62,368 nt of DNA from Myxococcales bacterium (GCA_037441385.1 JBBISH010000023.1:1-62368), one strand, 5' to 3'; counted from the stretch's first letter, positions 4,559-41,348 are shown. Notes: generated by a model not told the origin, from the sequence alone. Numbers and translations: made by a program.

Positions 4559-4586
4559 GGACTTGTTGCGGCGCCACAACTTCCTC
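4559..4586. repeat. Island palindromic site 1 (GGACTTGTTGC GGCGCC ACAACTTCCTC)
   Basis: Degenerate copy of the GTTGC-N6-GCAAC palindrome with the shared left flank (CGGCAAAAAT...GTAGTCTTG). Confidence 0.8.
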
Positions 4587-4692
4587 GCCTCGCCGGCCAA
4601 CTCGGCACTGCCCCAGCCCCACATTGGACCCCGCCCGGCGCCTCGGCTATCCTCGCCCCGGCCCTTTCACCGCCGCTCCTGGACCCGCCGCC

Positions 4693-7518
4693 GTGACCGT
4701 GCCCCAGTCCTCCGCCGCGCCCGTCGCCCCGTCGCCCCTGGCCGCCCGCTGGCCACAGCTGCTGGGCTACTGGCTCGATTGCGTGCGCGAAGACGCCAGC
4801 TTTGACGCCCGCTGCCCGTTCGCCGACCTGGGTAAGGTGTGGCTGCCGCTGGATGGCGCCGACGCGCTGCGGCTGGTGGTGGGTGACCCGCAGGACCCTG
4901 TGCGCCTGCCGCTGGCGGGACCGGGCGAGGCCCTGGCGCGGTTGGCCCGCAAAGAACGCCATAGCTCGCGGGTCTTTGTGGGCCTGCCTTGCTGGCACGA
5001 CGGCAAGTCCGCGCCGCGTGGCGGTGGCAAGACCCTGTGGCCGCTGCTGCTTTACCCGCTGCAGTGGGTCGAAGACGGCCGCCACCTGCTGCTGCGGCGC
5101 GACGGCGACTGGCCGTTTTTCAACGCCCAGGCCCTCGACGCGCTGGCGCCCTCGGTCGAAGAGCGACGGAGCCTGTTTTCGGGCCTGGGGCTGGTCGACT
5201 GCGAGGTCCCGCCGCCGCCGGCCCGGCTGCTGGCGACTCTGAGCCGCTACTTGCCCGGCCCGCAGCCCGTGGACGCCCCCAGCGAAGCGGCGCCCTGGCC
5301 GGCCATGCCCTTGGGCGAGGCTGACTTGGCAGCGGCGGGCTGGCTGACCCAGGCGGTCCTGGTGGCCGGCGACCGTCCAGCGTGGACGCGCGGTTTGGCC
5401 ATCGAGTTGGAACGCCTACAGCGATCGGCCACCCCCGACCTGCTGCGCGGCACTGCCCTGGCGCCTTGGCTCGCCGATGGCCCTGCCGTTCTGCCGGCCG
5501 AAACCCGCGACGACTTCTGGCCAGCGCTGCCGCTGGGCCCCGACCAGTCCGAGGCGGTCCGCGCGGCCCAGCACGCGCCCCTGACGGTCATCACCGGGCC
5601 GCCTGGCACCGGCAAGTCGCAGGTGGTGGTGGCGATCCTGGCCGAGGCCTGGCAGCGTGGCCAGCGGGTGCTGTTTGCCAGCCGCAATCACCACGCCGTC
5701 GACGTGGTCGAAGAGCGCCTGCGCGCGGTGCTGGGGCGGCAGCTGGCGGTGCGCGCCGGTCGCAAAGCCGGCGAGCGCGACCTGCGCCAGGGCCTCATCG
5801 AGCTGCTGCACGCGCTGCTGACCGAGCGGCCCAGCGACGCCGAGCGCCAAGCTCGCGCCAACCTTGCAGAACAGCTGCGCCAGCTGGGGCTGCAGCACGC
5901 CGAGGTGTTTGCCCAGCTGCAAACGGCCGCGCTGGCCCAGGCTGCGCCCAGCGACCCGACCGCGGGGACCTGGCTGCGGCGGGTGCTGGGCCGCACCGAG
6001 CCGGCGGCGACGCTTCCCGACCGATCGCTGGCCGTGACCAAGTTGGCTAGTCTGCAAGGGCAGTTGCAGCAGGTGCAGCGGCAGTTCCTGCGGGCGGCGC
6101 TGGCGACCTTGCCCGATCAGCTGGACGGACCGGCGCGGCGGGCCATCGGCCAGTACCGCGCGACCCTGGAGCGGTTGTCGGGCGACGAACTCGGCGGCGG
6201 CACCTTTGCTTCGCTGCAGCAGGACCTGGAGCGGCTGTTTGCCCAAGTCAGCGCGGTGCTGCCGCTGTGGTGCGTGACCAACCTGTCGGCGCGTTCGTCG
6301 CTGCCGCTGGTGCCGGGGCTGTTCGACCTGGTCATCTTGGACGAGGCCAGCCAGTGCGACATCGCCTCGGCGATCCCGCTGCTCTATCGCGCCAAGCGGG
6401 CGGTGATCATCGGCGACCCGCAGCAGCTGCGCCACATTGCAGGGATGGCGCGCCACGCCGACCAGCTCTTGCAGCAGCGCCACGGCCTGGTGGCGGCGGC
6501 CGATCAGCCGTTTTCCTACAGCCTGAACTCGCTGTTCGACCTGGCCTCGACCTGGGCCGAGCCCGGGCAGGTGCACACGCTGCGCCAGCATTTTCGCAGC
6601 CACCCCGAGATCATCGGCTTTGCCAACCAACAATTCTACGGCGGTCGGCTGGCCATCGGCACCGATTTGGCGCAGCTGGTGGTGCCGGACGAGCAGCGCC
6701 CGGGCCTGTTGTGGACCGAGGTCGAGAGCCGCCTGAAGCGCCCGCCCGATGGCGGCTGCCTGGCGCCCGAAGAGGCCGAGGCGGTGGCGGCGTGGGTGGT
6801 CAAGCTGGTCAAACAGCAGGCCTTTGCCGGCTCGGTGGGGGTGGTGGCGCCGTTTCGCGCCCAGGCGAACCGCATCCGCGCTCTGCTGGCGGCGCGCCTG
6901 GACGGGCGCGAGCTGCAGCGCTGCAGCGTGGTGGTCGACACCGCCCACGGGCTGCAGGGCGACGAGCGCGACGTAGTGGTGTTCTCGCCCTGCGTCGGCC
7001 GCAACATGCCCGAAGGTGCGCGGCGCTTCTTGGCCGACAACGGTCACCTGCTCAACGTGGCGGTTACCCGCGCCAAGGCAGTGCTGCACGTGTTCGGTGA
7101 CCGCGCGGCCGCCCGCTACGGCGACATTGCCCACTTGCGGGCGCTGGCCGAGTGGAGCCTGGATCCGGCGGCGGCGGCTCAAGCTGCAGCGGCAGCGACC
7201 CTGGCCGAGACCGACAGCCCGGCCGAAGCAGCGCTGTTGGCGGCCTTGCGCGAACTGTCGCTGCCGGTGATGGCGCAGTTTGCGGTGCCGCCTTATCGGC
7301 TGGACCTGGCGCTGTGCGAAGGCGAAAAACGCCTGGCGGTGGAAGTGGATGGCGCGCCGTGGCACCAGCTGGGGGCGGCGGCGTGGCGGCGCGACCTGCT
7401 GCGCGATGCAGCGCTGGCGGCCAAGGGCTGGGCGGTGCTGCGGCTGACGGCGGCGGAGGTGCTGGCCGAGCCGGCGCTGGCGGCGGAGCGGGTGCGGCAG
7501 GTTTGGTTGGCCGAATAA
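4693..7518 (+). CDS. SF1 (DNA2/NAM7-like) helicase with C-terminal Vsr/DUF559-type endonuclease
   Basis: GPPGTGKS, DEASQ, IGDPQQL, HFRS, QGDERD and LNVAVTRA motifs; C-terminal DSPAE...AVEVDG..WH...RD..RD...GW. GTG start inferred. Confidence 0.88.
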   Translation: MTVPQSSAAPVAPSPLAARWPQLLGYWLDCVREDASFDARCPFADLGKVWLPLDGADALRLVVGDPQDPVRLPLAGPGEALARLARKERHSSRVFVGLPCWHDGKSAPRGGGKTLWPLLLYPLQWVEDGRHLLLRRDGDWPFFNAQALDALAPSVEERRSLFSGLGLVDCEVPPPPARLLATLSRYLPGPQPVDAPSEAAPWPAMPLGEADLAAAGWLTQAVLVAGDRPAWTRGLAIELERLQRSATPDLLRGTALAPWLADGPAVLPAETRDDFWPALPLGPDQSEAVRAAQHAPLTVITGPPGTGKSQVVVAILAEAWQRGQRVLFASRNHHAVDVVEERLRAVLGRQLAVRAGRKAGERDLRQGLIELLHALLTERPSDAERQARANLAEQLRQLGLQHAEVFAQLQTAALAQAAPSDPTAGTWLRRVLGRTEPAATLPDRSLAVTKLASLQGQLQQVQRQFLRAALATLPDQLDGPARRAIGQYRATLERLSGDELGGGTFASLQQDLERLFAQVSAVLPLWCVTNLSARSSLPLVPGLFDLVILDEASQCDIASAIPLLYRAKRAVIIGDPQQLRHIAGMARHADQLLQQRHGLVAAADQPFSYSLNSLFDLASTWAEPGQVHTLRQHFRSHPEIIGFANQQFYGGRLAIGTDLAQLVVPDEQRPGLLWTEVESRLKRPPDGGCLAPEEAEAVAAWVVKLVKQQAFAGSVGVVAPFRAQANRIRALLAARLDGRELQRCSVVVDTAHGLQGDERDVVVFSPCVGRNMPEGARRFLADNGHLLNVAVTRAKAVLHVFGDRAAARYGDIAHLRALAEWSLDPAAAAQAAAAATLAETDSPAEAALLAALRELSLPVMAQFAVPPYRLDLALCEGEKRLAVEVDGAPWHQLGAAAWRRDLLRDAALAAKGWAVLRLTAAEVLAEPALAAERVRQVWLAE

Positions 7519-7584
7519 GGGCTGCGCAAACTCAGCAGAAGGAACACGTCTGGCCAGAAATCATGCGTCGTCTTGGGCAGGTGT

Positions 7585-7612
7585 GGACAAGTTGCGACGT
7601 CGCAACTTCCTC
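7585..7612. repeat. Island palindromic site 2 (GGACAAGTTGC GACGTC GCAACTTCCTC)
   Basis: Intergenic; the centre differs but remains palindromic. Confidence 0.9.
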
Positions 7613-7711
7613 CCCGTCCGCGCCCACCCACCCAGACGCGCCGCCACCCGGCCCTTGCCAACCCGCATCACCCGTGCCAACTTGCGCGCCGTCTTCGCCC
7701 AAGGCAGCGCC

Positions 7712-10381
<2,670 letters not shown>

Positions 10382-11533: not shown

Positions 11534-11633
11534 GGCAGCGGTGCGCGGTGGTTCGGCAGCGGTATTGCTGGCGGAAACTGGACGTATTCGTCGTCAGCGC
11601 GGGCAAGATCGCGTGTAGTCCTAGGCAGGTGGG

Positions 11634-11661
11634 GTACTTGTTGCGGCGCCGCAACGCGCTG
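11634..11661. repeat. Island palindromic site 3 (GTACTTGTTGC GGCGCC GCAACGCGCTG)
   Basis: Perfect 16-bp core at 11640-11655; shared left flank. Confidence 0.85.
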
Positions 11662-12110
11662 CGCGCCGGAGCAGTGGCTAGGCCGGCGTCTTGACTGGAG
11701 GTTCAGCGGAGAATCGGCGTTGACGCGGGTCGATCACATGCTTCGAGCCGCTGTCTGAGGCCGGAAGGCCCGGGTTGGCGCACGCGATGTGAGCGTTGCG
11801 GTGGTTGGTTTCGGAGGCGCTTGCCCTTCCTTTGTGTCAACGTTGATAACGCCGACATATGCACTGCTGCGGCCGCCGCATGGCCCCACAATGACGTCGC
11901 CGCCGGCCAGCAGCGTGGCGGTCGGGCGAGATTACGGCGACGGAAGACCACAGACCCAGGCGCGCGAGTCTGACGCGAATGGTGCAGTGCACCCAACTCT
12001 AGTCTTCCCGCCGTCGCGGCCCGGTCTTGCAGCAAGCCATGGACGAGCGGATGACCAGTGTAGTAGATCGCTTGCTGGGACTCAGTGCAGTCTGCTGGGG
12101 GGCGTAACCC

Positions 12111-13063: not shown

Positions 13064-13396
13064 CTACTGGCGCACTTCGACGACGCGCTCACCAGCGGTC
13101 ACTGCGCTCTCGACCGCCGGCCAGACCTGATCAAGCTGCCGCAGAAGTTCGCCGCGCCGGCAATTGCCCAAACGCAACCAGACTATCTGGGGACTGACCC
13201 GGACTTGAGCCGCGCGCAGCGCAAAGTCCTCGTCCTTGGTGACTAGCACGGCGCCGCGTGTCATGGCCGCGCGCCAGATGGTGCTGTCGTCGGCGTCGCG
13301 AAGCCCCAGGTCGCTCACATGCTCGGCACGGACGCCACGGTCCACTAGCCAACGCGCGAGCGCTACAGGCAGCTGGGCGTCGACCAAGAACCGCAC
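13064..13396 (-). CDS. DUF5615 PIN-like toxin
   Basis: RFLVDAQLP...D..IW...LVTKDEDF...WLRLGN; GTG start 1 nt after the DUF433 stop. Confidence 0.88.
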   Translation of the reverse strand: MRFLVDAQLPVALARWLVDRGVRAEHVSDLGLRDADDSTIWRAAMTRGAVLVTKDEDFALRAAQVRVSPQIVWLRLGNCRRGELLRQLDQVWPAVESAVTAGERVVEVRQ

Positions 13397-13397
13397 C

Positions 13398-13628
13398 TTA
13401 GGCCGCCAACACGATCGCGTGGTCGAGCTGCGCGGCGGCGTAATGCAGCGCAGCTGCGATGTCGTTAGCCTCCAGTTCTGGGTAGTCGCTGAGGATTTCG
13501 CCGACCGACGCACCGTGGGCCAGGAGTTCGAGTACGTCGCTGACGCGGATGCGCAGTCCGCGAATGCAGGGGCGACCGCCGCACTTGCCGGCCTGGATGG
13601 TAATACGCTCGAGTTGGGCACTGGTCAT
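13398..13628 (-). CDS. DUF433 antitoxin
   Basis: RITI..GKCGGRPCIRGLRIRV..VLELLA.G....EIL.DYPEL pattern. Confidence 0.92.
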   Translation of the reverse strand: MTSAQLERITIQAGKCGGRPCIRGLRIRVSDVLELLAHGASVGEILSDYPELEANDIAAALHYAAAQLDHAIVLAA

Positions 13629-13804
13629 CGTCGCTCCTCGGGGCCACGCCGCCAGGGCTCGGTGGCACAGGCGTCAGTCTAGCGAGTCGGCGTGGCTGGC
13701 GCCAGGGCCGGCAAGTGGCTTGGGCGTGGAGCAGTAATGCCGATGTGAACTGGGCCTTTTCCTCGCAAGCACGCACAAAATGTTAGTAGTTCTGTGGATT
13801 TGCG

Positions 13805-13832
13805 ATACAAGTTGCGGCGTCGCAACTTCTTG
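13805..13832. repeat. Island palindromic site 4 (ATACAAGTTGC GGCGTC GCAACTTCTTG)
   Basis: Lies between divergent TA modules and heads a short composite element ending at 13972. Confidence 0.9.
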
Positions 13833-13923
13833 CGCCGCGGGCCCGCGTCGAACCCGCAGCGGTCTAGGAACGCGGTGCAGGGAAGGGGCTCCTGTCGGCA
13901 CAGCACGCAAGTGGCAACGAGAT

Positions 13924-13972
13924 CGGGGATCTTCGCGATCTATCCGCTCCCTTACGGTCGCGGTTACTTAGG
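13924..13972. repeat. Hairpin motif B, copy a (CGGGGATCT...TATCCGCTCCCTTACGGTCGCGGTTACTTAGG)
   Basis: 46/49 identical to 15941-15989. Confidence 0.88.
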
Positions 13973-14693: not shown

Positions 14694-14763
14694 ATTGCCG
14701 GCCAAGGGGTCCTGTGGCGCTGCGTGCCGGAGCTTTGGCTCGGTGTCGATTTTCGGTTGAAAT

Positions 14764-19848: not shown

Positions 19849-20276
19849 GCCTCGACCTGAGCCTCCTCCCTGCGGGCGCCGAGGTGCTGTTCGACAGCGC
19901 ACCGCTCATCTATTGGTTCGAGGACCATCCTCTGGCCGAGCGGTTTGCGCCGCTGTTTCAAGCGGTGGCCGCAGGTCGCCTGCGCGCAGTGGTGACGCCG
20001 ATCGCCGTGGCGGAGGTCGTGGCCGGGCCCCTGCGCGCCGGCAAAGAGGCACTGGCCGAGCGCTACCGCCAGGCGCTGTGCCACGGCCACCACTGGCGGC
20101 TGGTGCCGATCGATGCCGAGATCGCCATGCTGGCGGCCCGCTTGCGGGTGGCGCACCAGCTACGCTTGCCCGACGCCCTCCAGGCCGCGACGGCGCTCCA
20201 CGTCGGATGCGCCGCGTTGGTGAGTCACGACCGCGACTTTCGCGGCATCGACGGGCTTGCCGTGCTGGGAGTCTGA
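19839..20276 (+). CDS. VapC/PIN-domain toxin
   Basis: LFDSAPLIY...AEV...LRLPDALQAATA...LVSHDRDF pattern. Confidence 0.9.
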   Translation: MDLSLDLSLLPAGAEVLFDSAPLIYWFEDHPLAERFAPLFQAVAAGRLRAVVTPIAVAEVVAGPLRAGKEALAERYRQALCHGHHWRLVPIDAEIAMLAARLRVAHQLRLPDALQAATALHVGCAALVSHDRDFRGIDGLAVLGV

Positions 20277-20344
20277 CGCGGACTCAAGTGGACGCACCCT
20301 GGCGCGGTAGGGACGGAAAGTAGCTGCATAGTTCGATGGATGTC

Positions 20345-20372
20345 GAGGGAGTTGCGGCGCGGCAACTTGGGG
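20345..20372. repeat. Island palindromic site 5 (GAGGGAGTTGC GGCGCG GCAACTTGGGG)
   Basis: Degenerate copy with the shared flank (GGAAAGT...ATAGTTC). Confidence 0.75.
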
Positions 20373-20573
20373 CGGTGCGTGGCGCGGAGTGCGGGGGCCG
20401 CGTCGTCGCCAGCAGTCAAGGGCGGCGCCGCCGGCACAGCGGACCCTTGACTTCCGGGGGCGGCGTGGACATTCCCGCAGAACTACAAGAACAGTCGACG
20501 CTTGCGAAGGCCAATTCGATCGGGATTGCCATCAGCACGCGAGCAGGTTACGGTCTGGGCGTGTCTGTCTTGA

Positions 20574-21104: not shown

Positions 21105-21207
21105 GTGGCATGGCGGCGTGCCGACTCCCCGGGGTCAGTAATACCGATTTAAACTCAGCTTGTCGCCATCCATCGACGAAGAATCTGACCTAGTTTTGAA
21201 TAGCTGC

Positions 21208-21235
21208 CAACAAGTTGCGGCGCCGCAACTTCTCC
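21208..21235. repeat. Island palindromic site 6 (CAACAAGTTGC GGCGCC GCAACTTCTCC)
   Basis: Perfect 20-bp palindrome AAGTTGCGGCGCCGCAACTT. Confidence 0.9.
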
Positions 21236-21256
21236 CCCCGCGTAGGCCTCGGCGTC

Positions 21257-21943
21257 CTACAGCGCCGCCAGCCACGCCTCCAGCGCCGCCCGCGCCGCCT
21301 CCAAGTCCTTGCGCAGCTGCGTGCGGGCCTTGTCGTCCAGGCCCTTGAGCTGCGGCTTCTTGCCCAGCGCCTTGACCGCCCGCCCCACGGCGCCGGCCTG
21401 CTTGACGGTGGCGTGCAGCGGCGGTCGCCCGCCCTTGCCCAAGAGCCCATGCTCATGGCGGAACTGGCTCACCTCCACCTCGGTGCGGTCCAGCGACCAG
21501 CTCTGATCCACGGCGCGCACCGCCAGCTGGGCGCGGTCGGCCACCGAGCCCACCACCGCCAGGGCCTTGAGGTGACTGGGGCTCAGCTGGCCCTGGATGG
21601 CGCGCGGCAGCGACAGGTTGATGTCCCAGGCGCGGATGGCGGCGCGGACTTGGTCGAGCGATACACCCAGAAACGCCAGCCTGTCGCCGTGTTGCTCCAG
21701 CAACAGCCGCAGCGGCGCGTCTTGGGCGGCCGAGCGGTCGCGGGTCGCGGCCAGATCCCCGGCGTACAGCTCTTCCACGGCGGCGCGGCCCAGGGCGAGG
21801 ACGCCAGCGATCAGGTGCTGGGTGCGGATGGTCTCGACGCGGGCGAGGAAGCTCTCGCAGCGGGTAGCGAGGTCGAGTGGCGGTGGGATGCCGGCGTCGT
21901 CTTGGGAGGCGAGGTCTCGATCGATGGTTGGCAGGTTTTGCAT
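21257..21943 (-). CDS. Putative DNA-binding protein with a ParB/KorB-like HTH region and no CTPase domain
   Basis: LAFLGVSLDQV...LPRAIQGQLSPSHLKAL...RAQLAVRAVDQSWSLDRTEVEV resembles the Spo0J DNA-binding domain (also DUF1016 N-terminus); AAGGAG RBS. Confidence 0.6.
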   Translation of the reverse strand: MQNLPTIDRDLASQDDAGIPPPLDLATRCESFLARVETIRTQHLIAGVLALGRAAVEELYAGDLAATRDRSAAQDAPLRLLLEQHGDRLAFLGVSLDQVRAAIRAWDINLSLPRAIQGQLSPSHLKALAVVGSVADRAQLAVRAVDQSWSLDRTEVEVSQFRHEHGLLGKGGRPPLHATVKQAGAVGRAVKALGKKPQLKGLDDKARTQLRKDLEAARAALEAWLAAL

Positions 21944-25802: not shown

Positions 25803-25806
25803 ACCC

Positions 25807-27939: not shown

Positions 27940-28049
27940 GGGCGCGGTGGTGGCTGTGGTTGGGGGTGCGTGCACGGCTGTTTTCGAGCGATGAACTGTG
28001 CGCGACTTCGACAGGCCGGCAAGAAACCTGCGTAGGTTTGACTGGATGT

Positions 28050-28077
28050 GGACAAGTTGCGGCGCCGCAACTTCCGT
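28050..28077. repeat. Island palindromic site 7 (GGACAAGTTGC GGCGCC GCAACTTCCGT)
   Basis: Between convergent genes; left flank CGGCAAGAAA...GTAGGTTTG. Confidence 0.9.
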
Positions 28078-28124
28078 CGTTTTGCCGGTGCGCGCCGACC
28101 TCTGGCGTCTGCGGCAGCAGCGCC

Positions 28125-29342: not shown

Positions 29343-29573
29343 GGGGTTTCGGCCAAAGTGCAGTCTGCTTGCATTTTGGCCGAATTTGTCGGAATGGGCA
29401 AGGGGGTTCGCGGGGTTGGGTGCAGGCGATAGGGGGTGGTCGTGGAGGTCGGCTGGGGGGCGGATGCGCTGTGGGAGGCCGCGCTGTCTCCCTGCGCGGT
29501 CGTACCGCTGATGCGAACGGAAATAGCGCGCGATCGATCTGGTGAAAAATAGGATTGATTTTAGACTGTTGGG

Positions 29574-29601
29574 ATACAAGTTGCGGCGCCGCAACTTCCT
29601 C
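29574..29601. repeat. Island palindromic site 8 (ATACAAGTTGC GGCGCC GCAACTTCCTC)
   Basis: Between divergent genes. Confidence 0.9.
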
Positions 29602-29788
29602 GCGGTCGTTGTGCCGCCACGGTGCCGAACCGCGGACTCGGCGGATACCGAGAAGCGAGCTCCGGCCAGCCGTGTTTGAACGCGACAAGCTGTGTCGGAT
29701 TGCCTAAGCCATGTCGCGGCGCCTGCTTGACCTGGTGGTAGCGCGGCGGTACTGGCTGCAGGAACCGACGTTGCGGAGACCGGCCCAG

Positions 29789-30322: not shown

Positions 30323-30380
30323 CTTCTCCGTCACGATGCGTCCTTGGCGCACCGGCAGCTCTTGGGTAGAGTCCGGGGCC

Positions 30381-31319
30381 ATGTCCAGACGTCGTCGCCA
30401 CAGCACGTCGAGCGCCCACGGTGAAACCGAGGTATGGCCGGCGTATGTCGACGTGCTGTCGGCCGCGTTTGTCTTTGTGCTGCTGGCGTTTGCGGCGTTG
30501 TTGACTCGGGATGTTGCCCAAGAGGATGACCGAAACGCGGCTCACGCTAGGAAGGTGCAAGACGATTCCGACTTCAGGACGAAACAGGACGAGTGGCTCC
30601 GCAACGGCGCGCAAGCAGTAAGGGACGCGGCCGAGGGGATGAGGGACGACCTCAAGCCGGTAGGCCTTGCTGGTGCATGTACGTTGCCCGATGCGACCCA
30701 GCTTAGCTTGAATCCGTTGCTTGTGGCGTCTTTTTCGGAGAAGCAACTTGAGCTTGACCCGGACCACCGACATCCAGTCACGTTGGTCTGCACGTTCTCT
30801 GAAAACGCTCTCCGTTTTGCGAAGGGTAAGGAGGAGCCTGAACCGCCAAGCAAGCGCGAGTTTGTGCCAAAGCTTCAAGGTTTGGCGACGCGGTCCGCCA
30901 ATCGACGCTGCCAGGCAGCGACCGACAGGCCATCGTGGTGTTGCGCCGGGCTCGAAGTAGTGGGCCATTCCGACTGCCAGCCGTTGCCAGACGACTCAAA
31001 GACCAACTGGGAACTGAGTACGAACCGTGCAGACTGGGTACTTCGCCAGATGGTCTCGGACCTTACAGTTGATCAACTCCGCCAACGGGAGTTTCGCCTC
31101 GGGGCAAGTGGCCGGGCTGACCGAGAGCCTCGCGTGGACACGTCAGCGATTTGCGCCGATAAAGGCAACCTAAAGCGCATACTTGCAGGCCCCGATTCTG
31201 AAGAGAAACGTGTGGTAGACTCTACGCTTAGCCAGAATCGGCGGGTCGAAGTGCTGATCTTCTTGCGCACCAAGGCTCTTGAGCCGCGCCCGATGCGGCC
31301 ACCAGGGATGGCTCCATGA
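30381..31319 (+). CDS. zorB: ZorB-like MotB/OmpA-domain protein
   Basis: WPAYVD + TM helix; GHSD, NWELSTNRA and NRRVEV peptidoglycan-binding motifs. Confidence 0.8.
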   Translation: MSRRRRHSTSSAHGETEVWPAYVDVLSAAFVFVLLAFAALLTRDVAQEDDRNAAHARKVQDDSDFRTKQDEWLRNGAQAVRDAAEGMRDDLKPVGLAGACTLPDATQLSLNPLLVASFSEKQLELDPDHRHPVTLVCTFSENALRFAKGKEEPEPPSKREFVPKLQGLATRSANRRCQAATDRPSWCCAGLEVVGHSDCQPLPDDSKTNWELSTNRADWVLRQMVSDLTVDQLRQREFRLGASGRADREPRVDTSAICADKGNLKRILAGPDSEEKRVVDSTLSQNRRVEVLIFLRTKALEPRPMRPPGMAP

Positions 31320-33625: not shown

Positions 33626-33637
33626 ACAGGAATCGTC

Positions 33638-34831
33638 ATGGCGTTCGAACAGCTAGCCCGGGTTCACCACGAGCTTGCCAGGCGGTGGGCGCACTTGCCG
33701 CCCAAGGCGCCGCTGGCCCAGGCAGTCCCTGCCGACGCTGTGGCCGCGGCGGTTCGTCGTGTCCAGCATGGCCAGGCCGAGGCCATCGATGCGGAATTGC
33801 TGGCCCGATCCCTTGCGCAGGTCACCAAGTTCGGCATTCAGGCTGAGGCAGCCGTTGAGCGCTATTTGCGGAAGGTCGGCGCCGATGGCGAGTATTGGCT
33901 TCTTGGCCTAACGGATCCCGCGTTGCCCGGGGCCAGACGGGTCCCGTGGCTGAATATTGCCGCACAACACGGGTCCCTAACCGCCGCCGAGTTGGCGCTC
34001 GCCAAGTGGGTTGCCCTTCACGAAGAGTTCCGGGGCCCTCCGTCGGGATTCGTTGCTTTGGTCCCGCCAGCGCAGTGGTCAAGTTGGCTCGCCGACCATG
34101 GCCTCCGGGCTAGACTGCTGGTACCCCTTGCTCAATCTTTGCTGTTGTATGCGGAAACGTTTCCGCCAGCAAATCTGACACCGGCTCCGCTTCAGAATTG
34201 GCTCGATTCGCATGACATTCCTCGGATCATGTCCCGCACCCCGCCGAATTTGGCAGAGATCCGGCGCATTGGCGGACGGCTGCTATCAGCTTGCCACGCG
34301 CTTCTGCAAGGGCGGGTCGCCCAGCAGTTTCGAGCAGAGGTGCGCAAGGCCTGGCTCGAGTTGGACCCCGTTGGCCGCGCGTCCATGCGCAAGCTGACCG
34401 CCGCTGCCCTTGGCCTGAGCGACGCGGATTTCGCCCGCTTGCGGCGCCTGGAATCCGACGCGGAGTTCGACGCCTTCTTGGTAGACGCAGATCAGGACTA
34501 CAACTGGCGCGGTATGCGCGGGGACTTCTGGCGGCGTGAGCGATCGCGACTGCACCAACTCGGCTACTACATCGACCGCAGTGCCCACGGCGACCGCCTA
34601 GTGCTCACACTCGACGACGGTCGCTTTGCCGTTGAGTTCCTGGATGCCGGACCGTTGCTGTTTTTCGACGAGGGTCGCGTGTCGAAGGAGCTTGCCGACC
34701 GCGCGCTGGGCCCGATGCGCTCCAACAAGTTCAGGGAGACCTGCATGACCTGGAACAAGGTAGACCACCGTGGCAACTGGTATCCACGGGCGGTTGATGC
34801 ACTGATACAGTTTGCAGGAGCCCGAAAGTGA
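33638..34831 (+). CDS. zorC: ZorC-like EH-signature protein
   Basis: C-terminal R.DFW...VEF...G...H.GNW pattern and operon position. Confidence 0.7.
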   Translation: MAFEQLARVHHELARRWAHLPPKAPLAQAVPADAVAAAVRRVQHGQAEAIDAELLARSLAQVTKFGIQAEAAVERYLRKVGADGEYWLLGLTDPALPGARRVPWLNIAAQHGSLTAAELALAKWVALHEEFRGPPSGFVALVPPAQWSSWLADHGLRARLLVPLAQSLLLYAETFPPANLTPAPLQNWLDSHDIPRIMSRTPPNLAEIRRIGGRLLSACHALLQGRVAQQFRAEVRKAWLELDPVGRASMRKLTAAALGLSDADFARLRRLESDAEFDAFLVDADQDYNWRGMRGDFWRRERSRLHQLGYYIDRSAHGDRLVLTLDDGRFAVEFLDAGPLLFFDEGRVSKELADRALGPMRSNKFRETCMTWNKVDHRGNWYPRAVDALIQFAGARK

Positions 34832-37500
34832 AGTGGATTTCGACGCGCGACGGCATGGCCTGGAAGAAGCCCGGAGCCACAGACTGCGCCGCCAAGGCCT
34901 GGTTGCCGCTGGCTGAGGCAGAATTTTCGCCTTCGTTGCTCCTCGACTCCGAGTTCGCTGACCTAGCTCAACTGGATGCTCTTGCTGGCGAATTCGAGCT
35001 GCTGGAGCCATCAGGGCTCGTGGTCGTGCCGTGGGCAGTCTTGGAGGGGTTGGATGCCGAACGTTCGGACCTGCTTGGTCTTCCTCCGGTTGTTCGGCCG
35101 ACAGTCCGCCTTGTCGAATTCGGCGCCCCGTCGCTTGGGCGCTATCGCATCGAAGCCCGCTTGGACTGCGACCCGAATGGCCGGCTCCGGCGAGACCATG
35201 GCACCGTCTGGGCTGACGAGACTCTCATCGGGGCATTGCCGGCGTTGTGGCTGAGAACACTGGAGTTAGTTGATTCTGTTGTGGACATTCGCGAGCCCGA
35301 AGCCCGGACGGAAGCACTGTTCGCCATCGCGAAAAGCGCCAAGGAGTTCGATTGGCTGCTGCCAGATTCGCTGGCTTCGATGGTCGAGGTGGAACACTGG
35401 CGTCTGGAGCCCGAAGTCAGCACGCCAGATCAAGTAGTCTTGGAGGCAAGTTGGACGGACCCATCTCTTGACCATCTGGACCCGGAGGCGATTGCCACCT
35501 TGGCGCCCGCCGGCGGCCACGTCACCGAGAGAGTCGGCGGCAAGTGGAAGCGAATTCGCATCGGCCAGGCTGCACGGGACTCGATGCGCCAGGGACGGCG
35601 CCGCGTGCTGCGCGGCCAAGATGTCCCCAGGTTCATAGCGAATCCGGAAGCCATCTTGGGCGAACAGGCCGACGCCGTCGACCTGAATGACTTTTCCAAG
35701 CGAGTCAAGGGCCTGCTGCCGGCTGTCTACCGCTCGCGGCCGTACATTCGCGCTGAACCCTCTGGCGTTGACTGGTTTAGCGTCGAGGCAGGCGCGGAGC
35801 TCGAGAACCTCGATACTCCAACCGATTCAGCGGGCGTGTCTACTCCTGGTCCATCGCGCCTAAGGGGCGCGGCGTGGCGAGAATGCGTCGAACAGGCAGT
35901 GGCCGCGGGGGAGTCGTACGTTCAACTGGGTGCAGACTGGGTTCACGTCGAAGACGCGGCGGCAGAGTTCAAGCGGCTTCGCGCTCTTGAGGCCGCTTGC
36001 CCATCGGGCCGGGTGCATGCTTCGCAACTCCGGACCGTTCTCCAAATCTACGAGAACATTCATGAGCTTGAGTACGCCGAGTCTGTGGACCAGGGACCGC
36101 AGAGCCTGCCACCGGTGCTGCTGCCGGAGTGGTTCGCAATTCCACTCAAACAACACCAGGAACTGGGCCTGCGCTGGCTGTACGCCCACTACCAGACCGG
36201 CACGGGAGCAATCCTCGCGGACGAGATGGGCGTGGGCAAGACGGCGCAAATGCTTGCGCTTCTGAGCGTGGTCCGCGGCGACGGCCCGAGTTTGGTCGTG
36301 GCGCCGGCCGCGGTTGTCGCGCAATGGCCCGACGAGGCAGCCCGGTTTGCCCCTGGTCTTCGCGTGCGGGTAATCGAACGCGCAATTGAATTCGACCCGG
36401 CCGACGCCGTACCCGGCACCGTTTGGGTTGTTTCGTACGATGCCTTGCGGCGCGGCCAAGAGTGGCTTGCCCGCGTGCCTTGGTGCGTTGTCGCCTGCGA
36501 CGAGGCGCAGCGGGTCAAGAACAAGACGGCGCAGATCACCCACGTAGTCAAGGCCCTCAAGGCCAAGTTCCGGGTAGCCATATCGGGGACGCCAGTCGAA
36601 AACGGCCTCGGCGAGCTCTGGAACCTGTTTGACCTAGTGCGGCCTTCGCTCCTGGGGTGCTATCGCGAATTCGCCTCTGAATTCGAGGCTCCTATCATGC
36701 GCGGGGCCGATAGTGAAACGGTCCTGGCTCGGCTCACCAAGCGGACGAGCCCGTTTATCCTGAGACGGCTCAAGGCAAATCACATTCCGGGGCTGCCGGC
36801 ATTGACGACCGAGGTTGTGGAGGTGGCCTGCACCGCCAAGCAGCGTGCGATGATCGCCGCCAAGATAGCGGAATTGAAATCGACAGGTAGCCCAGGAATC
36901 TTCCTGGCGTATGCCAACTGGGTACAAAGGTGCCTTTTTGACCCTGCGCTGGTCGGCGGCCCGGACGACGTGTTGGCGCCCAAGCTGGCAAAGACCCTCG
37001 AAATTGTTGAAGAGGCTTGGAGGAAGGGCGAGCGAAGCATCGTCGTTGCCGAACAACTTGATGTGCAAGAACGACTTTCGCGTGCGCTGCTGCAACGCTA
37101 CGGCACCGCGCCTTACATGATCAACGGCGCCGTGGACACCGATGAGCGCCTTCGCCGGGTGAAGGCATTTGCCCATCACGGGTGCCCAGCGCTAGTCCTG
37201 AGTCCAAAGGCAGGTGGCGTTGGTCTGAATATCACCTCGGCAAATCACGTGATTCTGCCGACCAGGCTTTTCAACCCAGCTCCCGAAGACCAATCGATCG
37301 CCCGCGCGCACCGCATGGGCCAGCAGCGCGATGTCCACGTCTACGTGCTGACTGCCGTGGACGACCGCCCCACATTTGACCAAAAGCTGCATGCCTTGCT
37401 CTCGCGAAAGCGTGAACTGGCATCGACCACTTTGTATCCAATCGAGAAACTTGGATTGTCTGAGAAGGAGTTGTCAGCCGCACTGTTGGGCGGTGGCTAG
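34828..37500 (+). CDS. zorD: ZorD-like SNF2 helicase (no C-terminal nuclease seen)
   Basis: LADEMGVGKT, DEAQ, SGTPVEN, SPKAGGVGLNI and RAHRMGQ motifs; GTGA overlap with zorC. Confidence 0.78.
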   Translation: MKWISTRDGMAWKKPGATDCAAKAWLPLAEAEFSPSLLLDSEFADLAQLDALAGEFELLEPSGLVVVPWAVLEGLDAERSDLLGLPPVVRPTVRLVEFGAPSLGRYRIEARLDCDPNGRLRRDHGTVWADETLIGALPALWLRTLELVDSVVDIREPEARTEALFAIAKSAKEFDWLLPDSLASMVEVEHWRLEPEVSTPDQVVLEASWTDPSLDHLDPEAIATLAPAGGHVTERVGGKWKRIRIGQAARDSMRQGRRRVLRGQDVPRFIANPEAILGEQADAVDLNDFSKRVKGLLPAVYRSRPYIRAEPSGVDWFSVEAGAELENLDTPTDSAGVSTPGPSRLRGAAWRECVEQAVAAGESYVQLGADWVHVEDAAAEFKRLRALEAACPSGRVHASQLRTVLQIYENIHELEYAESVDQGPQSLPPVLLPEWFAIPLKQHQELGLRWLYAHYQTGTGAILADEMGVGKTAQMLALLSVVRGDGPSLVVAPAAVVAQWPDEAARFAPGLRVRVIERAIEFDPADAVPGTVWVVSYDALRRGQEWLARVPWCVVACDEAQRVKNKTAQITHVVKALKAKFRVAISGTPVENGLGELWNLFDLVRPSLLGCYREFASEFEAPIMRGADSETVLARLTKRTSPFILRRLKANHIPGLPALTTEVVEVACTAKQRAMIAAKIAELKSTGSPGIFLAYANWVQRCLFDPALVGGPDDVLAPKLAKTLEIVEEAWRKGERSIVVAEQLDVQERLSRALLQRYGTAPYMINGAVDTDERLRRVKAFAHHGCPALVLSPKAGGVGLNITSANHVILPTRLFNPAPEDQSIARAHRMGQQRDVHVYVLTAVDDRPTFDQKLHALLSRKRELASTTLYPIEKLGLSEKELSAALLGGG

Positions 37501-37575
37501 CTTTGGCGCCACCAACTGGTCCTCCGCCGCACGCGCAAGCCATTCCGCAACCTCGGGATCCTCACGGTGCCGCAT
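37474..37575 (-). pseudogene. Truncated HEPN-domain gene
   Basis: MRHREDPEVAEWLARAAED... overlaps the MNT stop and breaks off at the zorD 3' end. Confidence 0.65.
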
Positions 37576-37891
37576 AGATCACCCGCCCCGTAGCCTCCGC
37601 CGCGTGCGCCACGCTACTGCGCCAAGTGCGCAGCCGCGCGTACTCCGCCGGCGTCAACACCACCACCTCGCAGTCGACCCGGCAGTCGGCAGTGGCGCGC
37701 AGGGCCCGCGCGGTGCGACGGATCGCCGACTCCTCGGTCGGCGCCACCACCAGCAAATCCCAGTCGCTATCCGGACTTCCGGTACCTTGGGCGCGCGAGC
37801 CAAACCACACCGCGCGCTGCACATCAAAGACCGCGCGCAGGCGCTCGACCAGCCCTTGGGCAATCTTCTCGTCTTGCAGCAGGTCGGACAT
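37562..37891 (-). CDS. Minimal nucleotidyltransferase (MNT) antitoxin
   Basis: WFGSRAQG...SDWDLLVV motif; GGAGG RBS. Confidence 0.9.
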   Translation of the reverse strand: MSDLLQDEKIAQGLVERLRAVFDVQRAVWFGSRAQGTGSPDSDWDLLVVAPTEESAIRRTARALRATADCRVDCEVVVLTPAEYARLRTWRSSVAHAAEATGRVIYAAP

Positions 37892-38055
37892 GTGGCCTCC
37901 AGCCCTGGAGTCTAGGTTCGACCTTCAGGCGGTGCAAGCAAAACTCGGCGCCGTGGTGCCAGGTTCGCCCCCTTGCGGCCCCTGATCTTGTGGTTGAAAC
38001 CTGGTTGATCCAACGCGTGCAGAACCCAAAAATACCGTGTGTTCAGACTACTGTA

Positions 38056-38381
38056 GGACAAGTTGCGGCGCCGCAACTTGTCCCGCGCCAGGGATGCGAA
38101 CCCGAAGGGCGGCGTGCTACGCCGCTTCCGGCGCCAGTCGCCCCGGTTTCAGCGGCAGCCCCCGTCGCCGGAAGTCGCAGCCCAATCGGCCGTCAGGCCG
38201 AGGCGCCCATATCCGCCGTAGCCACGTCACTGTCGCCCACATCGCCGTCGTAGTGGCGCGGGCGCTCGACGCACGCAAATGCCCCCAGCCGCACCGGACT
38301 CGTGCGCATTCGACGTCGGGGATCTGCAACGGGTATCGGCTCCATCACGGTCGCGGTTATTTAGCCAGATCAACCACTTGG
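38056..38381. repeat. Composite repeat copy 1: site 9 (perfect GGACAAGTTGC GGCGCC GCAACTTGTCC, 38056-38083) through hairpin motif B (38317-38364)
   Basis: Extensive identity with 41037-41348. Confidence 0.9.
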
Positions 38382-38450
38382 GCGACCTTCTGCCAAGTCT
38401 GTTCAACCCCGCACCGCACGGTCCCGCGCCCAGCCGCCGCTCACCCTCAC

Positions 38451-38840
38451 CTACCGCTCCAAAGTCAGTTCGGCAATCCACCCCGACCGAGTCTGACCGG
38501 CGGCCCGCGCCTGCGCATCGAGTCGCGCCAGGATCCGCCGCGGCAGGGTGATGTTGACCCGGTCGACGTGGTCGTCGAGCAGCGCGGGGTCCACGTGCAC
38601 AAGGGCCAGCGTCCAGCCGGCAAATTCCGGGCGGGCGGCGATCTCGCTGAGGGGCGACGGTGCCGGCACGGTCTGGCCCGCGTCGAGCGCGGCGTCGATC
38701 CAAGCCGCAACGGCCTCCTCGGCATTGCCGACGGCTTCGTCCAGCGTGTCGCCGGCCGAAAAGCAGCCGGGCAGGTCCGGAACGACCACGCCCCAAGCCG
38801 TTTGGGCCGAGCCCGCCTCGATCGCGATGGGATATCTCAC
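38451..38840 (-). CDS. hicB: HicB antitoxin with C-terminal ribbon-helix-helix
   Basis: VVVPDLPGCFSAGDTLDEA and RVNITLP motifs. Confidence 0.92.
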   Translation of the reverse strand: MRYPIAIEAGSAQTAWGVVVPDLPGCFSAGDTLDEAVGNAEEAVAAWIDAALDAGQTVPAPSPLSEIAARPEFAGWTLALVHVDPALLDDHVDRVNITLPRRILARLDAQARAAGQTRSGWIAELTLER

Positions 38841-39052
38841 AGCGTCTCCTTCCCAGTATCGCTGGCCTGGCCCGTCAGGCCGGCTTGCTTCCGAATGGCC
38901 GCCACCAGGCCCTTGCCCAGCTCCTTCTTGGGGTGTGGCACCACCACGATGCCGGGCCGCTCGGCGTGCTTGAATACATGGTGCGAACCGCGCACCCGGT
39001 CCAGCACCCAGCCGGCCTTGGTCATTTCCAGGATGAGGGCGGCGCTCGTCAT
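38837..39052 (-). CDS. hicA: HicA toxin
   Basis: GW...RVRGSHHVFKH...VVVPHPKKEL motif. Confidence 0.92.
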   Translation of the reverse strand: MTSAALILEMTKAGWVLDRVRGSHHVFKHAERPGIVVVPHPKKELGKGLVAAIRKQAGLTGQASDTGKETL

Positions 39053-39054
39053 GA

Positions 39055-39088
39055 TGTGTATAATACACACGTGCGGCGGGCTTGGCAA
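39055..39088 (-). promoter_or_regulatory. hicAB promoter and operator
   Basis: TTGCCA-17 bp-TATTAT on the minus strand; TGTGTAT-A-ATACACA palindrome at 39055-39069. Confidence 0.75.
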
Positions 39089-39134
39089 GGAAGTCTGCCG
39101 CCTTGCGGCCTTGCTCGGCTGAGCGCATTCTTGG

Positions 39135-39236
39135 CCTGATCCTGATCCTGATCCTGATCCTGATCCTGATCCTGATCCTGATCCTGAACCTTGACCCGAA
39201 CCCGAACCCGAACCCGAGCCGGAGCCCAAGCCGGAA
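39135..39236. repeat. Hexamer microsatellite: (CCTGAT)x8 followed by 9 degenerate hexamers
   Basis: Read directly from the sequence. Confidence 0.95.
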
Positions 39237-39243
39237 CCGCAAG

Positions 39244-39807
39244 ATGCCGCCACCCTACACCATCGCCGTCCTCGACACCGAAACCACCGGCCTCTCCCCG
39301 TCCTACGACCGCGTAGTCGAAGTCTTCGTCCAGCTCCTCCTCGTCGACGCCGACGGCCAGTTCATCGATTTCCCCGGCCACTACCACAGCCTGCACGACC
39401 CCGGCCGGCCGATCCCGCGCGAGGCCACCTACGTGCATGGCATCACCAACGCGATGGTGCGCGGCCACCGCATCGACGACCGCGCCCTGGCCGAACTCCT
39501 GGCCCGCGCCCAACTCGTGGTGGCCCACAACTCCGGTTTCGACAAGGGCTTCATCCGCCAGCACGTGCCCAGCTGCGACGCGCTGACCTGGGGCTGCTCG
39601 TGCCGCGGCATCCCGTGGAAGACCCTGTATCCCCAGCTGTGGAGTACCTCGCTCCCCGAACTGGCCCAGGCCCTGCGCGTCCCGGCCGGCACCGCCCACC
39701 GCGCCCAGGGCGACGTGGAGACCACCTGCCGCCTGCTGCTCCAGCCTAGCCCCGACGGCGCGCCGCACTTGCGCCACCTGCTGCGGAAAAAGCTCAAGAT
39801 CCGCTAA
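39244..39807 (+). CDS. DEDDh 3'-5' exonuclease (DnaQ-like)
   Basis: LDTETTG, AHNSGFD and HRAQGD motifs. Confidence 0.9.
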   Translation: MPPPYTIAVLDTETTGLSPSYDRVVEVFVQLLLVDADGQFIDFPGHYHSLHDPGRPIPREATYVHGITNAMVRGHRIDDRALAELLARAQLVVAHNSGFDKGFIRQHVPSCDALTWGCSCRGIPWKTLYPQLWSTSLPELAQALRVPAGTAHRAQGDVETTCRLLLQPSPDGAPHLRHLLRKKLKIR

Positions 39808-39929
39808 AAAGTGAGCCGCACCAGCTGGCTGGCCGCAAGGCCGGCTGCGCGGTGGGGCTTCGCAAACTCAGGCGTGGCTTTCAGCCGCCGGCCTTCACAC
39901 ACCCACCACGCCGGCCCACGCCCACCCCG

Positions 39930-40922
39930 TCACCCCACCGCCCGCAGCACCGCCCGGTCAAACTCCGCACCCTTCTGCTCCAACTCCGCCTCGGACCGGC
40001 CAACCCGCCGCTGCAACGCGCGCAACTGTTCGGCCAGCATCGCCAATTCGTGCACGCGCACCTGCGGCACCGTGACCTCTGCCCCGCCCGCCGCGCGGTA
40101 GGCCGACACCAGCTGCGCCAGGCCATCGGCCAGGCCAAAGGGCAGGCGCCGGCCGCGGGTCAGCACCGCCAGGTCGGCGGCGGGGTCGCCCAGGCTGGCG
40201 AATTCCCAGTCGATAAGCCCAGGCGGCTCGTTGCCAAACAAGTCGCGCAGCACATTCTGCCCCAGCAAATCGCCGTGCAGCAGCACTGCGGGCAGGGAGT
40301 CGCGCTGGCCTGGCACGGCATCGGGCAGGTGCTCAGTCGCCCACGCCGCCGCGAGGTCCGCGCTGGGGCGCCCCAGTTCACGCAGCGCGGCCAGCGCTTC
40401 CTCGGCATGGGCGCGGCGGGTGCGCTGGCCGCCGAACCAGGTCCACTCGCTGGCGATGTCTGCAAGGGGCAGCCCATGCACGCCGGCGGCAACTTGCGCC
40501 AGCAATTCCAGGTGCTCGGCCGGCTGTGGCTTGCCCGATACCGGCTGCACGGGCCAGCCTATCACTTGGCTGTAGACGGCCACCGGCCCCTCGCCGCCGT
40601 CCAGCAGGCCAATCGGTTTCGGCGCCCGAAACGGCAGTGCCAGGCCCTGCAAACGCGTCAACAGGGCGAATTCACGGCGGGCCCTCGCTGGATAGTCGTG
40701 GTCGGCGTCCCTCTTGGGCACCAGCACCACCGCGGACTCGAGCAATGCGCCTTGCGGCCGGCTGGCCTCCAAGTGCGCCAGGTAACCGCTGCGCGACAAG
40801 CCCCCGCCCAGCCAAAGCAGCCGGTCAAACGTGACCGACCCCGGCGCAAAGCGTTGGTCCAGGACGCGGCGCAGCGCTTGCCGGGCCCGCAGCAGGTCGG
40901 GGTGGAAGTGGCGCTTGGACAC
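39930..40922 (-). CDS. APH/choline kinase-family phosphotransferase
   Basis: LLHGDLLGQN and IDWEFA.LGDP motifs. Confidence 0.85.
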   Translation of the reverse strand: MSKRHFHPDLLRARQALRRVLDQRFAPGSVTFDRLLWLGGGLSRSGYLAHLEASRPQGALLESAVVLVPKRDADHDYPARARREFALLTRLQGLALPFRAPKPIGLLDGGEGPVAVYSQVIGWPVQPVSGKPQPAEHLELLAQVAAGVHGLPLADIASEWTWFGGQRTRRAHAEEALAALRELGRPSADLAAAWATEHLPDAVPGQRDSLPAVLLHGDLLGQNVLRDLFGNEPPGLIDWEFASLGDPAADLAVLTRGRRLPFGLADGLAQLVSAYRAAGGAEVTVPQVRVHELAMLAEQLRALQRRVGRSEAELEQKGAEFDRAVLRAVG

Positions 40923-41036
40923 GGTGCACCTTGGGACAGGTCAACGTCCTTCCGCCGGAAGGTTGCCGGAATGCGTGGCCTGTGGCTAGATCGTTTTGGC
41001 GACCGCCAAGAAATCGCCTTTTGTCAGTCTATTGCT

Positions 41037-41348
41037 TGACAAGTTGCGGCGCAGCAACTTGTCCCGCGCCAGGGATGCGAACCCGCAGGGCGGCGTCCTA
41101 CGCCGCAGCGGCCGCAGGCAGCCCCGCCGTCCACCAGGACGCTGGTTCGGCCGCTGTCGCAGCCCAATCGGCCGTCAGGCCGAGGCGCCCATATCGCCGT
41201 CGCCCCCATCGCCGTAGTAGTGGCGCGGGTACTCGGGGACAGATAGGGGCCCCAGCCGCACGGCACGCGAGCGCAGTCAAAGTCGGTGATCTACAAGGCG
41301 TATCCGCTCCCTCACGGTCGCGGTTATTTATTCAGATCAAGCACTTGG
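41037..41348. repeat. Composite repeat copy 2: site 10 (TGACAAGTTGC GGCGCA GCAACTTGTCC) through hairpin motif B (41284-41330)
   Basis: Direct repeat of 38056-38381. Confidence 0.9.

Follow-up and report, generated by a model that had tools for sequence, protein, structure and literature searches.

Ten intergenic, co-oriented DNA elements mark the joints of a defence island in a Myxococcales bacterium. The island lies on a stretch of 62,368 bases (GCA_037441385.1, JBBISH010000023.1:1-62368), which was analysed as a whole and is referred to below as the window. It contains defence and toxin-antitoxin genes and is bordered by an alcohol-dehydrogenase-like gene (ending at 4306) and a TPR/M48 gene (ending at 41464). 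The palindromic sites of the form GTTGC-N6-GCAAC in this island each form the conserved core of a junction element that is restricted to one lineage. Judged from the comparison of two genomes, the elements are junctions between shuffled cassettes, since each looks like an independent unit located where modules that have changed partners meet. Tentatively, we interpret the sites as places of recombination that have an accessory arm on one side and depend on a recombinase encoded elsewhere in the genome. The action of a recombinase, the position of the cut and the accessory role of the arm are the parts that we infer. The initial annotation of this DNA had proposed either recombination sites of a cassette system or operators of an island-wide regulator. 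It had overlooked the asymmetry of the unit, a ParB-type gene linked to one core, remnants of the IS91 family and duplications that span the core. Because of these four features the regulator stays under consideration, and an origin from a transposon has to be added.

Conserved cores at the end of an asymmetric element

A pattern scan for GTTGCNNNNNNGCAAC (GTTGC-N6-GCAAC) gave nine exact matches in the window, which are the cores of elements 2 to 10 in Table 1. None of 100 dinucleotide-preserving shuffles reached nine matches (mean 0.17, maximum 2). The tenth core at 4565, GTTGCGGCGCCACAAC, has one mismatch to the pattern. The ten core starts listed in the initial annotation were thereby reproduced, as were all of its variants of the central hexamer: GGCGCC in 6/10 cores, and GACGTC, GGCGTC, GGCGCG and GGCGCA in one each. 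The copy that had been singled out as the best, a 28-mer with perfect 11-6-11 palindromy, was found at 38062. The island flanks (about 25 kb in the earlier description) had been regarded as free of the motif, and indeed neither the pattern nor the profile detected a copy in about 26 kb of flanking DNA, compared with ten in 36.6 kb of island. The placement of all sites between genes holds, provided that plausible gene starts are used. Two maximal open reading frames (ORFs; 7583-10381 and 28125-29804) overrun a site; domain and profile matches put the real starts near 7655-7712 and 29342, which clears both sites.

In 16 copies from two genomes, ten from the window and six from the metagenome-assembled genome (MAG) described below, 13 of the 16 core positions are invariant. 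The central CG is invariant in 16/16 copies. The adjoining ACAA and TT are also kept across the two genomes, and core 3 (11640) is the sole copy without TT directly after the palindrome. The outer parts of the 11-6-11 core are unlike each other (GGACAA vs TTCCTC).

The initial annotation took the 28-mer as the unit. This 28-bp core is conserved; the real unit, however, is an asymmetric element of 110-260 bp, of which the core forms the right end. The element usually comprises about 110 bp, and about 260 bp at 4327-4588. Conservation extends about 95 bp to the left of the palindrome (about 240 bp in the long form) but only about 8 bp to its right. Read from its left end, the element consists of the left arm (about 95 bp), the first 11-bp arm of the core, (G)GACAAGTTGC, the spacer GGCGCC and the second 11-bp arm, GCAACTTCC(TC). 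The ten-site alignment reveals conserved arm blocks near -85 (...GCTGA.GC.AAACTG), from -45 to -20 (an A-rich stretch followed by GTAGTTTTGAC) and near -12 (TG.GG), and the core stands in the context ACAA-GTTGC-GGCGCC-GCAAC-TTCC. Half-site repeats within the arm are weak, with a copy at -15 in 5/6 elements of the MAG and in none of the window. The long form, element 1, is extended by a further module, about 150 bp long (4327-4471), whose left boundary is sharp. This module recurs in three elements of the MAG, and the left boundary is equally sharp in 4/4 copies.

An nhmmer profile of the 114-bp element gave ten full-length matches between 4479 and 41066, all on the plus strand, with E-values from 7e-22 to 4e-11. 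As the model was built from the same ten copies, it is informative on the absence of further ones: no other match in the window was better than E = 1.7, apart from minus-strand matches that comprise the palindrome alone. The co-orientation noted in the initial annotation is real, because the left arm is conserved and the right side is not. It stands on the ten plus-strand profile matches (10/10); the palindrome by itself cannot indicate an orientation. The direction of the elements is independent of the flanking genes, which are arranged in tandem, convergently (28056) or divergently (29580, 38062).

The element in a second genome

For relatives, 185,579 species genomes were scanned with the exact pattern ACAAGTTGCGNCGNNGCAACTT, which matches 7/10 sites of the window, so that relatives with a diverged core are missed. 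The scan yielded 11 stretches, and the profile follow-up detected the whole element in one genome only, a groundwater MAG labelled Deltaproteobacteria (loci L004, L008 and L009). In the other fetched loci the profile found the palindrome alone. The genome that the window comes from was not among the scan results. The MAG contains four exact pattern matches on three contigs and two further copies that were found by profile. Locus L009 has four co-oriented sites at 1609, 4084, 4784 and 5624. In L004 there is one element, with an adenylate cyclase gene on one side and unknown genes on the other. Plasmid collections gave no real match to the element. The family has so far been seen only in a poorly sampled high-GC lineage, Deltaproteobacteria according to the MAG record.

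In L008 a group II intron lies inside the long arm of the element and antisense to it (Table 1). Group IIC introns target attC sites or terminators, and group II introns often target hairpins; the insertion in L008 recalls this habit, as a likeness only.

The two genomes share two modules, which keep 74-82% nucleotide identity up to the element, where the arms are only 24-32% alike. The right flanks of core 6 (21214) and of L009 5624 are 82% identical over 275 bp, and a second comparison gave 79% over 485 bp. On the left of these cores the arms have 24% identity, and further upstream the window has a relic cassette where L009 has HicBA. Conversely, the nucleotidyltransferase (MNT) modules to the left of core 9 and of L009 4784 share 74% of their nucleotides over 386 bp; the arms between module and core are 32% alike, and beyond the core there is no match. 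Since module identity breaks at the element and the partners differ, the elements appear to mark junctions of shuffled cassettes. Mean left-arm identity, taken from the multiple alignment because pairwise global alignments gave unstable values, is 41% within the window, 54% within the MAG (53-81% among the copies of L009 and L008) and 36% for comparisons across the two genomes. The core is near-invariant while the arms have diverged, which shows that selection acts on the core. The initial annotation had preferred cassette borders over promoters or operators. The breaks between the genomes and the independence from gene orientation support such borders; recombination at them is a presumption.

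Recombination sites as the preferred interpretation

In the proposed mechanism, the 28-bp core would bind a recombinase and strand exchange would occur at the invariant central CG. The one-sided arm would be an accessory sequence that gives the site its polarity, as in res, cer/psi and attI. A cassette would leave as a circle bearing a single site when the two direct repeats on either side of it recombine, and would enter by the reverse of this reaction. By such events, complete defence systems and toxin-antitoxin modules would be acquired, dropped or rearranged in cassettes that measure 0.7-8.5 kb. We consider recombination the best interpretation because the sites are co-oriented irrespective of the genes and occur at all types of joints, because a constrained 11-6-11 core is combined with a one-sided arm, and because homology breaks at the element. 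The exact DNA breakpoint at the edge of core 3, where an IS91 remnant opens right after GCAAC at 11655, and the lack of copies in the flanks also count in its favour. The same applies to the cassettes of 700 and 840 bp in the MAG, each with a single toxin-antitoxin system, and to the GC content of the nine core-to-core intervals of the window (863-8482 bp), which ranges from 63.3 to 72.2%.

Several observations weigh against this interpretation. No tyrosine or serine recombinase and no DDE domain was found in the scanned ORFs of the window and of L004, L008 and L009 (43 + 33 + 14 + 47 proteins vs Pfam, 22 vs NCBIfam); the co-occurring tyrosine recombinase that the initial annotation suggested looking for was therefore not encountered there. 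Duplications extend across the core. In the window 38025-38381 recurs at 41006-41348, and in the MAG a repeated unit, with its 61-bp relic copies of the ParB-type gene, also spans the core. Plain duplication together with gene replacement explains such core-spanning repeats as well as exchange at the core does. Together with the missing recombinase these duplications are real weaknesses. Furthermore, the ten sites have five different spacers, and sites that differ in the spacer are usually limited in their exchange with each other. In several cases two or more modules share a cassette, which means that sites are absent from some joints. Finally, the comparison is limited to two genomes and two shared modules.

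The arrangement resembles sedentary chromosomal integrons, which likewise have co-oriented repeated sites bounding cassettes (here 10/10 on the plus strand in the window and 4/4 in L009), contain defence and toxin-antitoxin genes, and carry sites that are alike within a genome and unlike between genomes. Toxin-antitoxin cassettes are typical of chromosomal integrons, and an integron normally carries its integrase beside the array. In contrast, no integrase gene adjoins the present array, and the cassettes are up to 8.5 kb long, contain several genes on both strands and have their own regulation. The sites also lack the fold of attC, an imperfect inverted repeat of 57-141 bp (R''-L''...L'-R') that folds as one long hairpin. 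In single-strand DNA folds of 8/10 elements, pairing was confined to the short palindrome (z-scores 0.1 to -2.1); a consensus fold computed for 16 elements likewise has all of its seven pairs within the palindrome. Defence cassettes have been reported in integrons (bioRxiv 10.1101/2024.07.02.601686).

With the Xer sites (dif, pdif, cer/psi) the element shares the 28-bp 11-6-11 geometry and an enzyme that would be encoded elsewhere. In cer and psi a long accessory region lies on one side of the core only, like the arm here. The modules bounded by pdif have flanking sites in opposite orientation; the sites described here, by contrast, are all direct repeats. As stated in the initial annotation, the core is not dif: GTTGC-GGCGCC-GCAAC is unrelated to the GATAA-N6-TTATG that dif of Myxococcus and Anaeromyxobacter keeps according to the table in PMC2731167, and this motif is absent from the window (<=1 mismatch), while the source organism's own dif may differ from those tabulated.

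A core with conserved sequence on one side only, the arrangement of a resolution site, is present. Tn3 res and the Tn4430 IRS are similar to the element in total length (about 110-120 bp), in the terminal position of their palindromic crossover core and in having accessory sequence on a single side. The element differs from them in that no resolvase gene adjoins, the arm has no clear subsites and ten sites form an array. Direct repeats of the res type would give deletion. Overall, the element lacks the defining features of integrons, Xer/pdif sites and terminators, and works most like a cassette array. With regard to repetitive extragenic palindromes (REP/BIME), which occur in many copies throughout the intergenic regions of a genome, the comparison covers the window, whose flanks have no copy, and the six copies of the MAG. 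It is possible, though doubtful, that it represents a cassette-array platform distinct from integrons, with an unlinked recombinase and a 28-bp double-stranded core with one-sided arm instead of a folded attC. Such a platform would collect and reshuffle multi-gene defence systems in full, as well as toxin-antitoxin modules, and the ParB-type protein may mark or organise its junctions.

It is still not settled by which routes defence islands are put together, and outside integrons and phage or satellite hotspots we know of little evidence for a dedicated joining of whole defence systems. Joints that are marked by a conserved, oriented element common to two genomes with reshuffled cassettes make this question directly testable. 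If the sites do recombine, they would represent a second way to build cassette arrays, one able to carry multi-gene systems, and the element would help in practice to locate new defence genes of this lineage. Literature searches on defence islands of Myxococcota, on integron-like arrays of defence cassettes and on island regulators similar to ParB gave no description of the element, and the exact 16-mer cores occur in no searchable paper.

A ParB-type gene beside core 6

The first gene of the cassette after core 6 encodes a protein with a ParB/Noc-type helix-turn-helix (Table 1); two BrxD-like ATPases and a BrxHI/SngC-like helicase follow in this cassette (21991-27939). The gene to the right of L009 5624 encodes a protein with 78% amino-acid identity to it. 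The family profile matched the ParB DNA-binding domain in the PDB (6s6h, E = 1.5e-4; 6t1f, E = 5.8e-4), and the ten best Foldseek matches of the predicted structure (mean predicted local distance difference test score 78) were all ParB/Noc, with probability 1.0 and E-values around 0.02. The Pfam model HTH_ParB scored 14.7 bits, which is under its cut-off of 22.6, and matched 5/24 scanned relatives weakly as well. Residues 69-176 align to ParB; the first 68 residues or so match nothing in either the profile or the Foldseek search. The close family is rare, with ten matches among 5.8 billion clusters; at profile level it is broader, with 336 representative clusters. Phage and plasmid collections gave no match to the protein. 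The window protein and its relatives (P0012-P0160) are stand-alone proteins of about 210-250 residues without a Pfam model of their own. One relative of 599 residues also matches a Cas6 domain, and another is weakly similar to DUF1016_N.

The cores could instead be sites similar to parS or to KorB operators that this 228-residue protein binds at every junction, with silencing, insulation or joint regulation of the cassettes as the outcome; the common orientation would in that case reflect only the growth of the array by duplication. We regard this as a serious alternative, but an unlikely one. It would agree with the profile and Foldseek matches and the weak HTH_ParB matches, and with the position of the gene, which ends 28 bp from a 16-bp perfect palindrome. 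In P1 parB-parS and F sopB-sopC the site directly follows the gene, too. In L009 the cassettes at 4084 and 4784 open with the same 61-bp relic of the 3' end of the gene and a third cassette holds another relic, so that the gene or relics of it follow all four sites of that array. In the window, on the other hand, the gene or a relic is found at 1/10 sites only. A suspected relic after 7591 was unsupported. Only the DNA-binding part aligns and no N-terminal domain for binding of cytidine triphosphate (CTP) was matched, and binding to the sites is a proposal. A symmetric operator would need neither a one-sided arm of 95-240 bp nor strict co-orientation, and the site at 28056 is located between convergent 3' ends. 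Perhaps the protein simply belongs to its own BrxD/helicase cassette, as a component or as a local regulator.

ParB-like regulators that have many sites on one mobile element have been reported, namely KorB, VirB and BisD. Like KorB and its OB operators on RK2, VirB and BisD, the present case combines a protein with a ParB-type domain and a recurrent 16-bp perfect palindrome in an accessory region. It differs from these in the short protein with no matched CTP-binding N-terminal domain and in the asymmetric arm and strict co-orientation of the sites. For a Myxococcus defence island an island-wide regulator is known (PMC11506125). Binding of the sites by the ParB-type protein would make it an organiser of immunity genes across the whole island.

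One of the relics in L009 has been incorporated into a coding sequence. The small partner of MNT (L009 4107-4336, minus strand) reads through the 61-bp relic and takes its last residues, QLDAWLAAL, from it. Thus, a cassette gene ends within sequence that travels with the junction.

IS91-family remnants

Traces of IS91-family (Y2 HUH) transposase genes are present in both genomes, twice in the window and once in L004 (Table 1). Full-length relatives have 549 residues and carry PF14319 and PF04986. None of the scanned ORFs encodes an intact transposase; only gene fragments of IS91 were found.

The elements might thus be non-autonomous mobile DNA, or ends or targets of a strand-specific single-strand transposon of the IS91 family or similar to IS200/IS605, with cassettes piling up by one-ended transposition beside an existing end. 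This, too, is a serious alternative, though we consider it improbable. The remnants are the sole transposase traces near the elements in both genomes, and the outline of the element would fit: its right end is sharp about 8 bp past the palindrome, its left extent varies, and the left end of the long form is sharp in 4/4 copies. Strict co-orientation would match strand-specific insertion, with a hairpin close to the end, and the element contains conserved CAAG and GAAC, which we take to be target tetranucleotides of IS91. Rolling-circle capture by IS91/ISCR would likewise produce units that face the same way and have one sharp end; the island contains IS91-family remnants, one of them directly after a core. 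Such capture is at odds with the lack of an intact transposase and with the remnant's own end, because the sequence past its stop codon is unlike the element. In L004, nhmmer found one element, far from the fragment. The arms in the window are 41% alike at a near-invariant core, unlike recently amplified copies of miniature inverted-repeat transposable elements, and copy number is low and confined to the island within the window.

Terminators, RNA structures and promoters

The palindromes could also be terminators or RNA-stabilising hairpins, and the arm an intergenic leftover that was copied during module duplication. Five of the ten sites (4565, 7591, 11640, 20351 and 28056) are indeed located 73-260 bp after the end of a plus-strand gene, the spacers GGCGTC and GACGTC would keep base pairing, and the group II intron sits inside the element of L008. 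A terminator scan of 27000-42000 flagged 28056, where a T-run lies in the cassette-specific flank, as the only one of four sites, and the TPR gene has a T-run terminator of its own. The sites at 29580 and 38062 lie between divergent gene starts, and those at 13811 and 41043 after the starts of minus-strand genes. Moreover, a terminator needs neither 22-28 near-invariant bases common to two genomes nor a conserved arm. In view of these points we judge this explanation very improbable.

No Rfam family reached its gathering score in the window, and at E-values up to 10 nothing relevant appeared at 4200-4700 and only the intron in L004, L008 and L009. For the long form, folding of the minus strand gave GC-rich hairpins; a covariation term of 0.46 from three sequences is uninformative either way. 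An attachment site at a transfer RNA or transfer-messenger RNA gene was discarded, as the window contains neither. No sigma-70 promoter was found in the element in the scan of 27000-42000. An ECF-like GGAAC with a possible -10 TCGAC about 17 nucleotides downstream, noticed by eye in about 6/16 copies, was too poorly conserved and was dropped.

The island and its cassettes

The contents of the island, annotated by Pfam and PADLOC scans, are summarized in Table 1. The earlier list of modules was broadly right but requires four corrections. HicB is encoded on the minus strand from 38451 to about 38834. The toxin-antitoxin pair of cassette 3 is the minus-strand DUF433/DUF5615 pair. A DUF4276 relic in 20367-21213 was not confirmed, with no Pfam match in 12 ORFs. 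The region after the last site is a degenerate copy of the start of cassette 9.

Table 1. Elements, intervals and other features in the window and in the MAG loci (positions refer to the window unless a locus is named)
Feature	Position	Strand	Description
Element 1 (long form)	4327..4588	+	Core 4565-4580, one mismatch; extra module 4327-4471, then common arm; between alcohol-dehydrogenase-like gene (ends 4306) and helicase gene (4624-7518)
Element 2	7508..7614	+	Core 7591-7606, spacer GACGTC; between AAA_11/AAA_12 helicase with MTES_1575/DUF559 nuclease (ends 7518) and SNF2/DUF3670 + SWIM pair
Element 3	11552..11663	+	Core 11640-11655; IS91-family transposase gene remnant directly after
Element 4	13725..13834	+	Core 13811-13826, spacer GGCGTC; between start of minus-strand DUF433/DUF5615 pair (13628) and DUF4258/DUF2283 pair
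Element 5 (weakest copy)	20263..20374	+	Core 20351-20366, spacer GGCGCG; after PIN gene (ends 20276)
Element 6	21129..21237	+	Core 21214-21229
Element 7	27971..28079	+	Core 28056-28071; convergent neighbours, helicase (ends 27939) and AAA_14/DUF4143 gene (ends 28125)
Element 8	29491..29603	+	Core 29580-29595; divergent neighbours, AAA_14 gene (starts ~29342, minus) and SNase gene (starts 29711, plus)
Element 9	37975..38085	+	Core 38062-38077, perfect 28-mer palindrome; left, start of minus-strand MNT gene (37891); right, HicB, exonuclease and kinase genes
Element 10	40960..41066	+	Core 41043-41058, spacer GGCGCA
Degenerate copy of cassette 9 start	41059-41348		After element 10; 290 bp, 77% identical
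Terminator of TPR gene	41396-41433		Canonical, with T-run; after degenerate copy
Interval 1			AAA_11/AAA_12 helicase with MTES_1575/DUF559 nuclease
Interval 2			SNF2/DUF3670 + SWIM
Interval 3			IS91 remnant, DUF3800 (PDC-M04A), minus-strand DUF433/DUF5615 pair (13064-13628)
Interval 4			DUF4258/DUF2283, truncated AAA_21 gene, SWIM-SNF2, PIN pair
Interval 5			863 bp, relics only
Interval 6			ParB-type gene, unknown gene, two BrxD/SngB-like ATPases, BrxHI/SngC-like helicase
Interval 7			AAA_14/DUF4143 (PDC-S01)
Interval 8			SNase, Zorya-like genes including ZorD, MNT nucleotidyltransferase
Interval 9			HicB, DEDDh exonuclease, APH-like kinase
ParB/Noc-type helix-turn-helix gene	21257..21943	-	228 residues; stop codon 28 bp from end of core 6
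IS91-family transposase gene, 3' remnant and downstream	11645..11819	+	72% identical over 177 bp to L004 3527-3701
Second IS91-family remnant	14717-14772		
IS91-family C-terminal fragment	L004 3589-4227		5.7 kb from element
First L009 interval			2475 bp; CotH-like gene
Second L009 interval			700 bp; MNT and small partner
Third L009 interval			840 bp; HicB-HicA
Group II intron	L008 2036-4025		Element arm on either side (1941-2035, 4022-4164); at or beside GC-rich hairpin
Intron reverse transcriptase/maturase ORF	L008 2320-3960		
Intron domains D1-D4 (Rfam)	L008 2120-2291		
Intron domains D5/D6 (Rfam)	L008 3946-4019		
Second repeat family	13954-13970, 15971-15987, 38347-38363, 41314-41330	+	Block of ~50 bp within 90-120 bp of similarity

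Decayed genes were observed in two cassettes. In cassette 4 an AAA_21/HEC-01B gene (14784-15734, minus strand) matches the C-terminal half of the model only. In the relic-only cassette 5, 104 bp (20988-21091) are 79% identical to the 3' end of SNF2 at 19170-19273. A hexanucleotide run at 39123-39236 consists of CCTGAT repeated about nine times, followed by CCCGAA-like units. The run keeps the reading frame of the DEDDh exonuclease ORF (39082-39807), in whose 5' part it lies; a variable linker and a tract prone to slippage are two possibilities.

A second repeat family was found in four copies, all on the plus strand and all inside the island, where chance alone would give none. The ten fetched loci lack this family, and neither an Rfam match nor a convincing consensus fold was obtained for it. 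Its copies are placed upstream of DUF4258 and of SWIM-SNF2, and downstream of and antisense to hicB.

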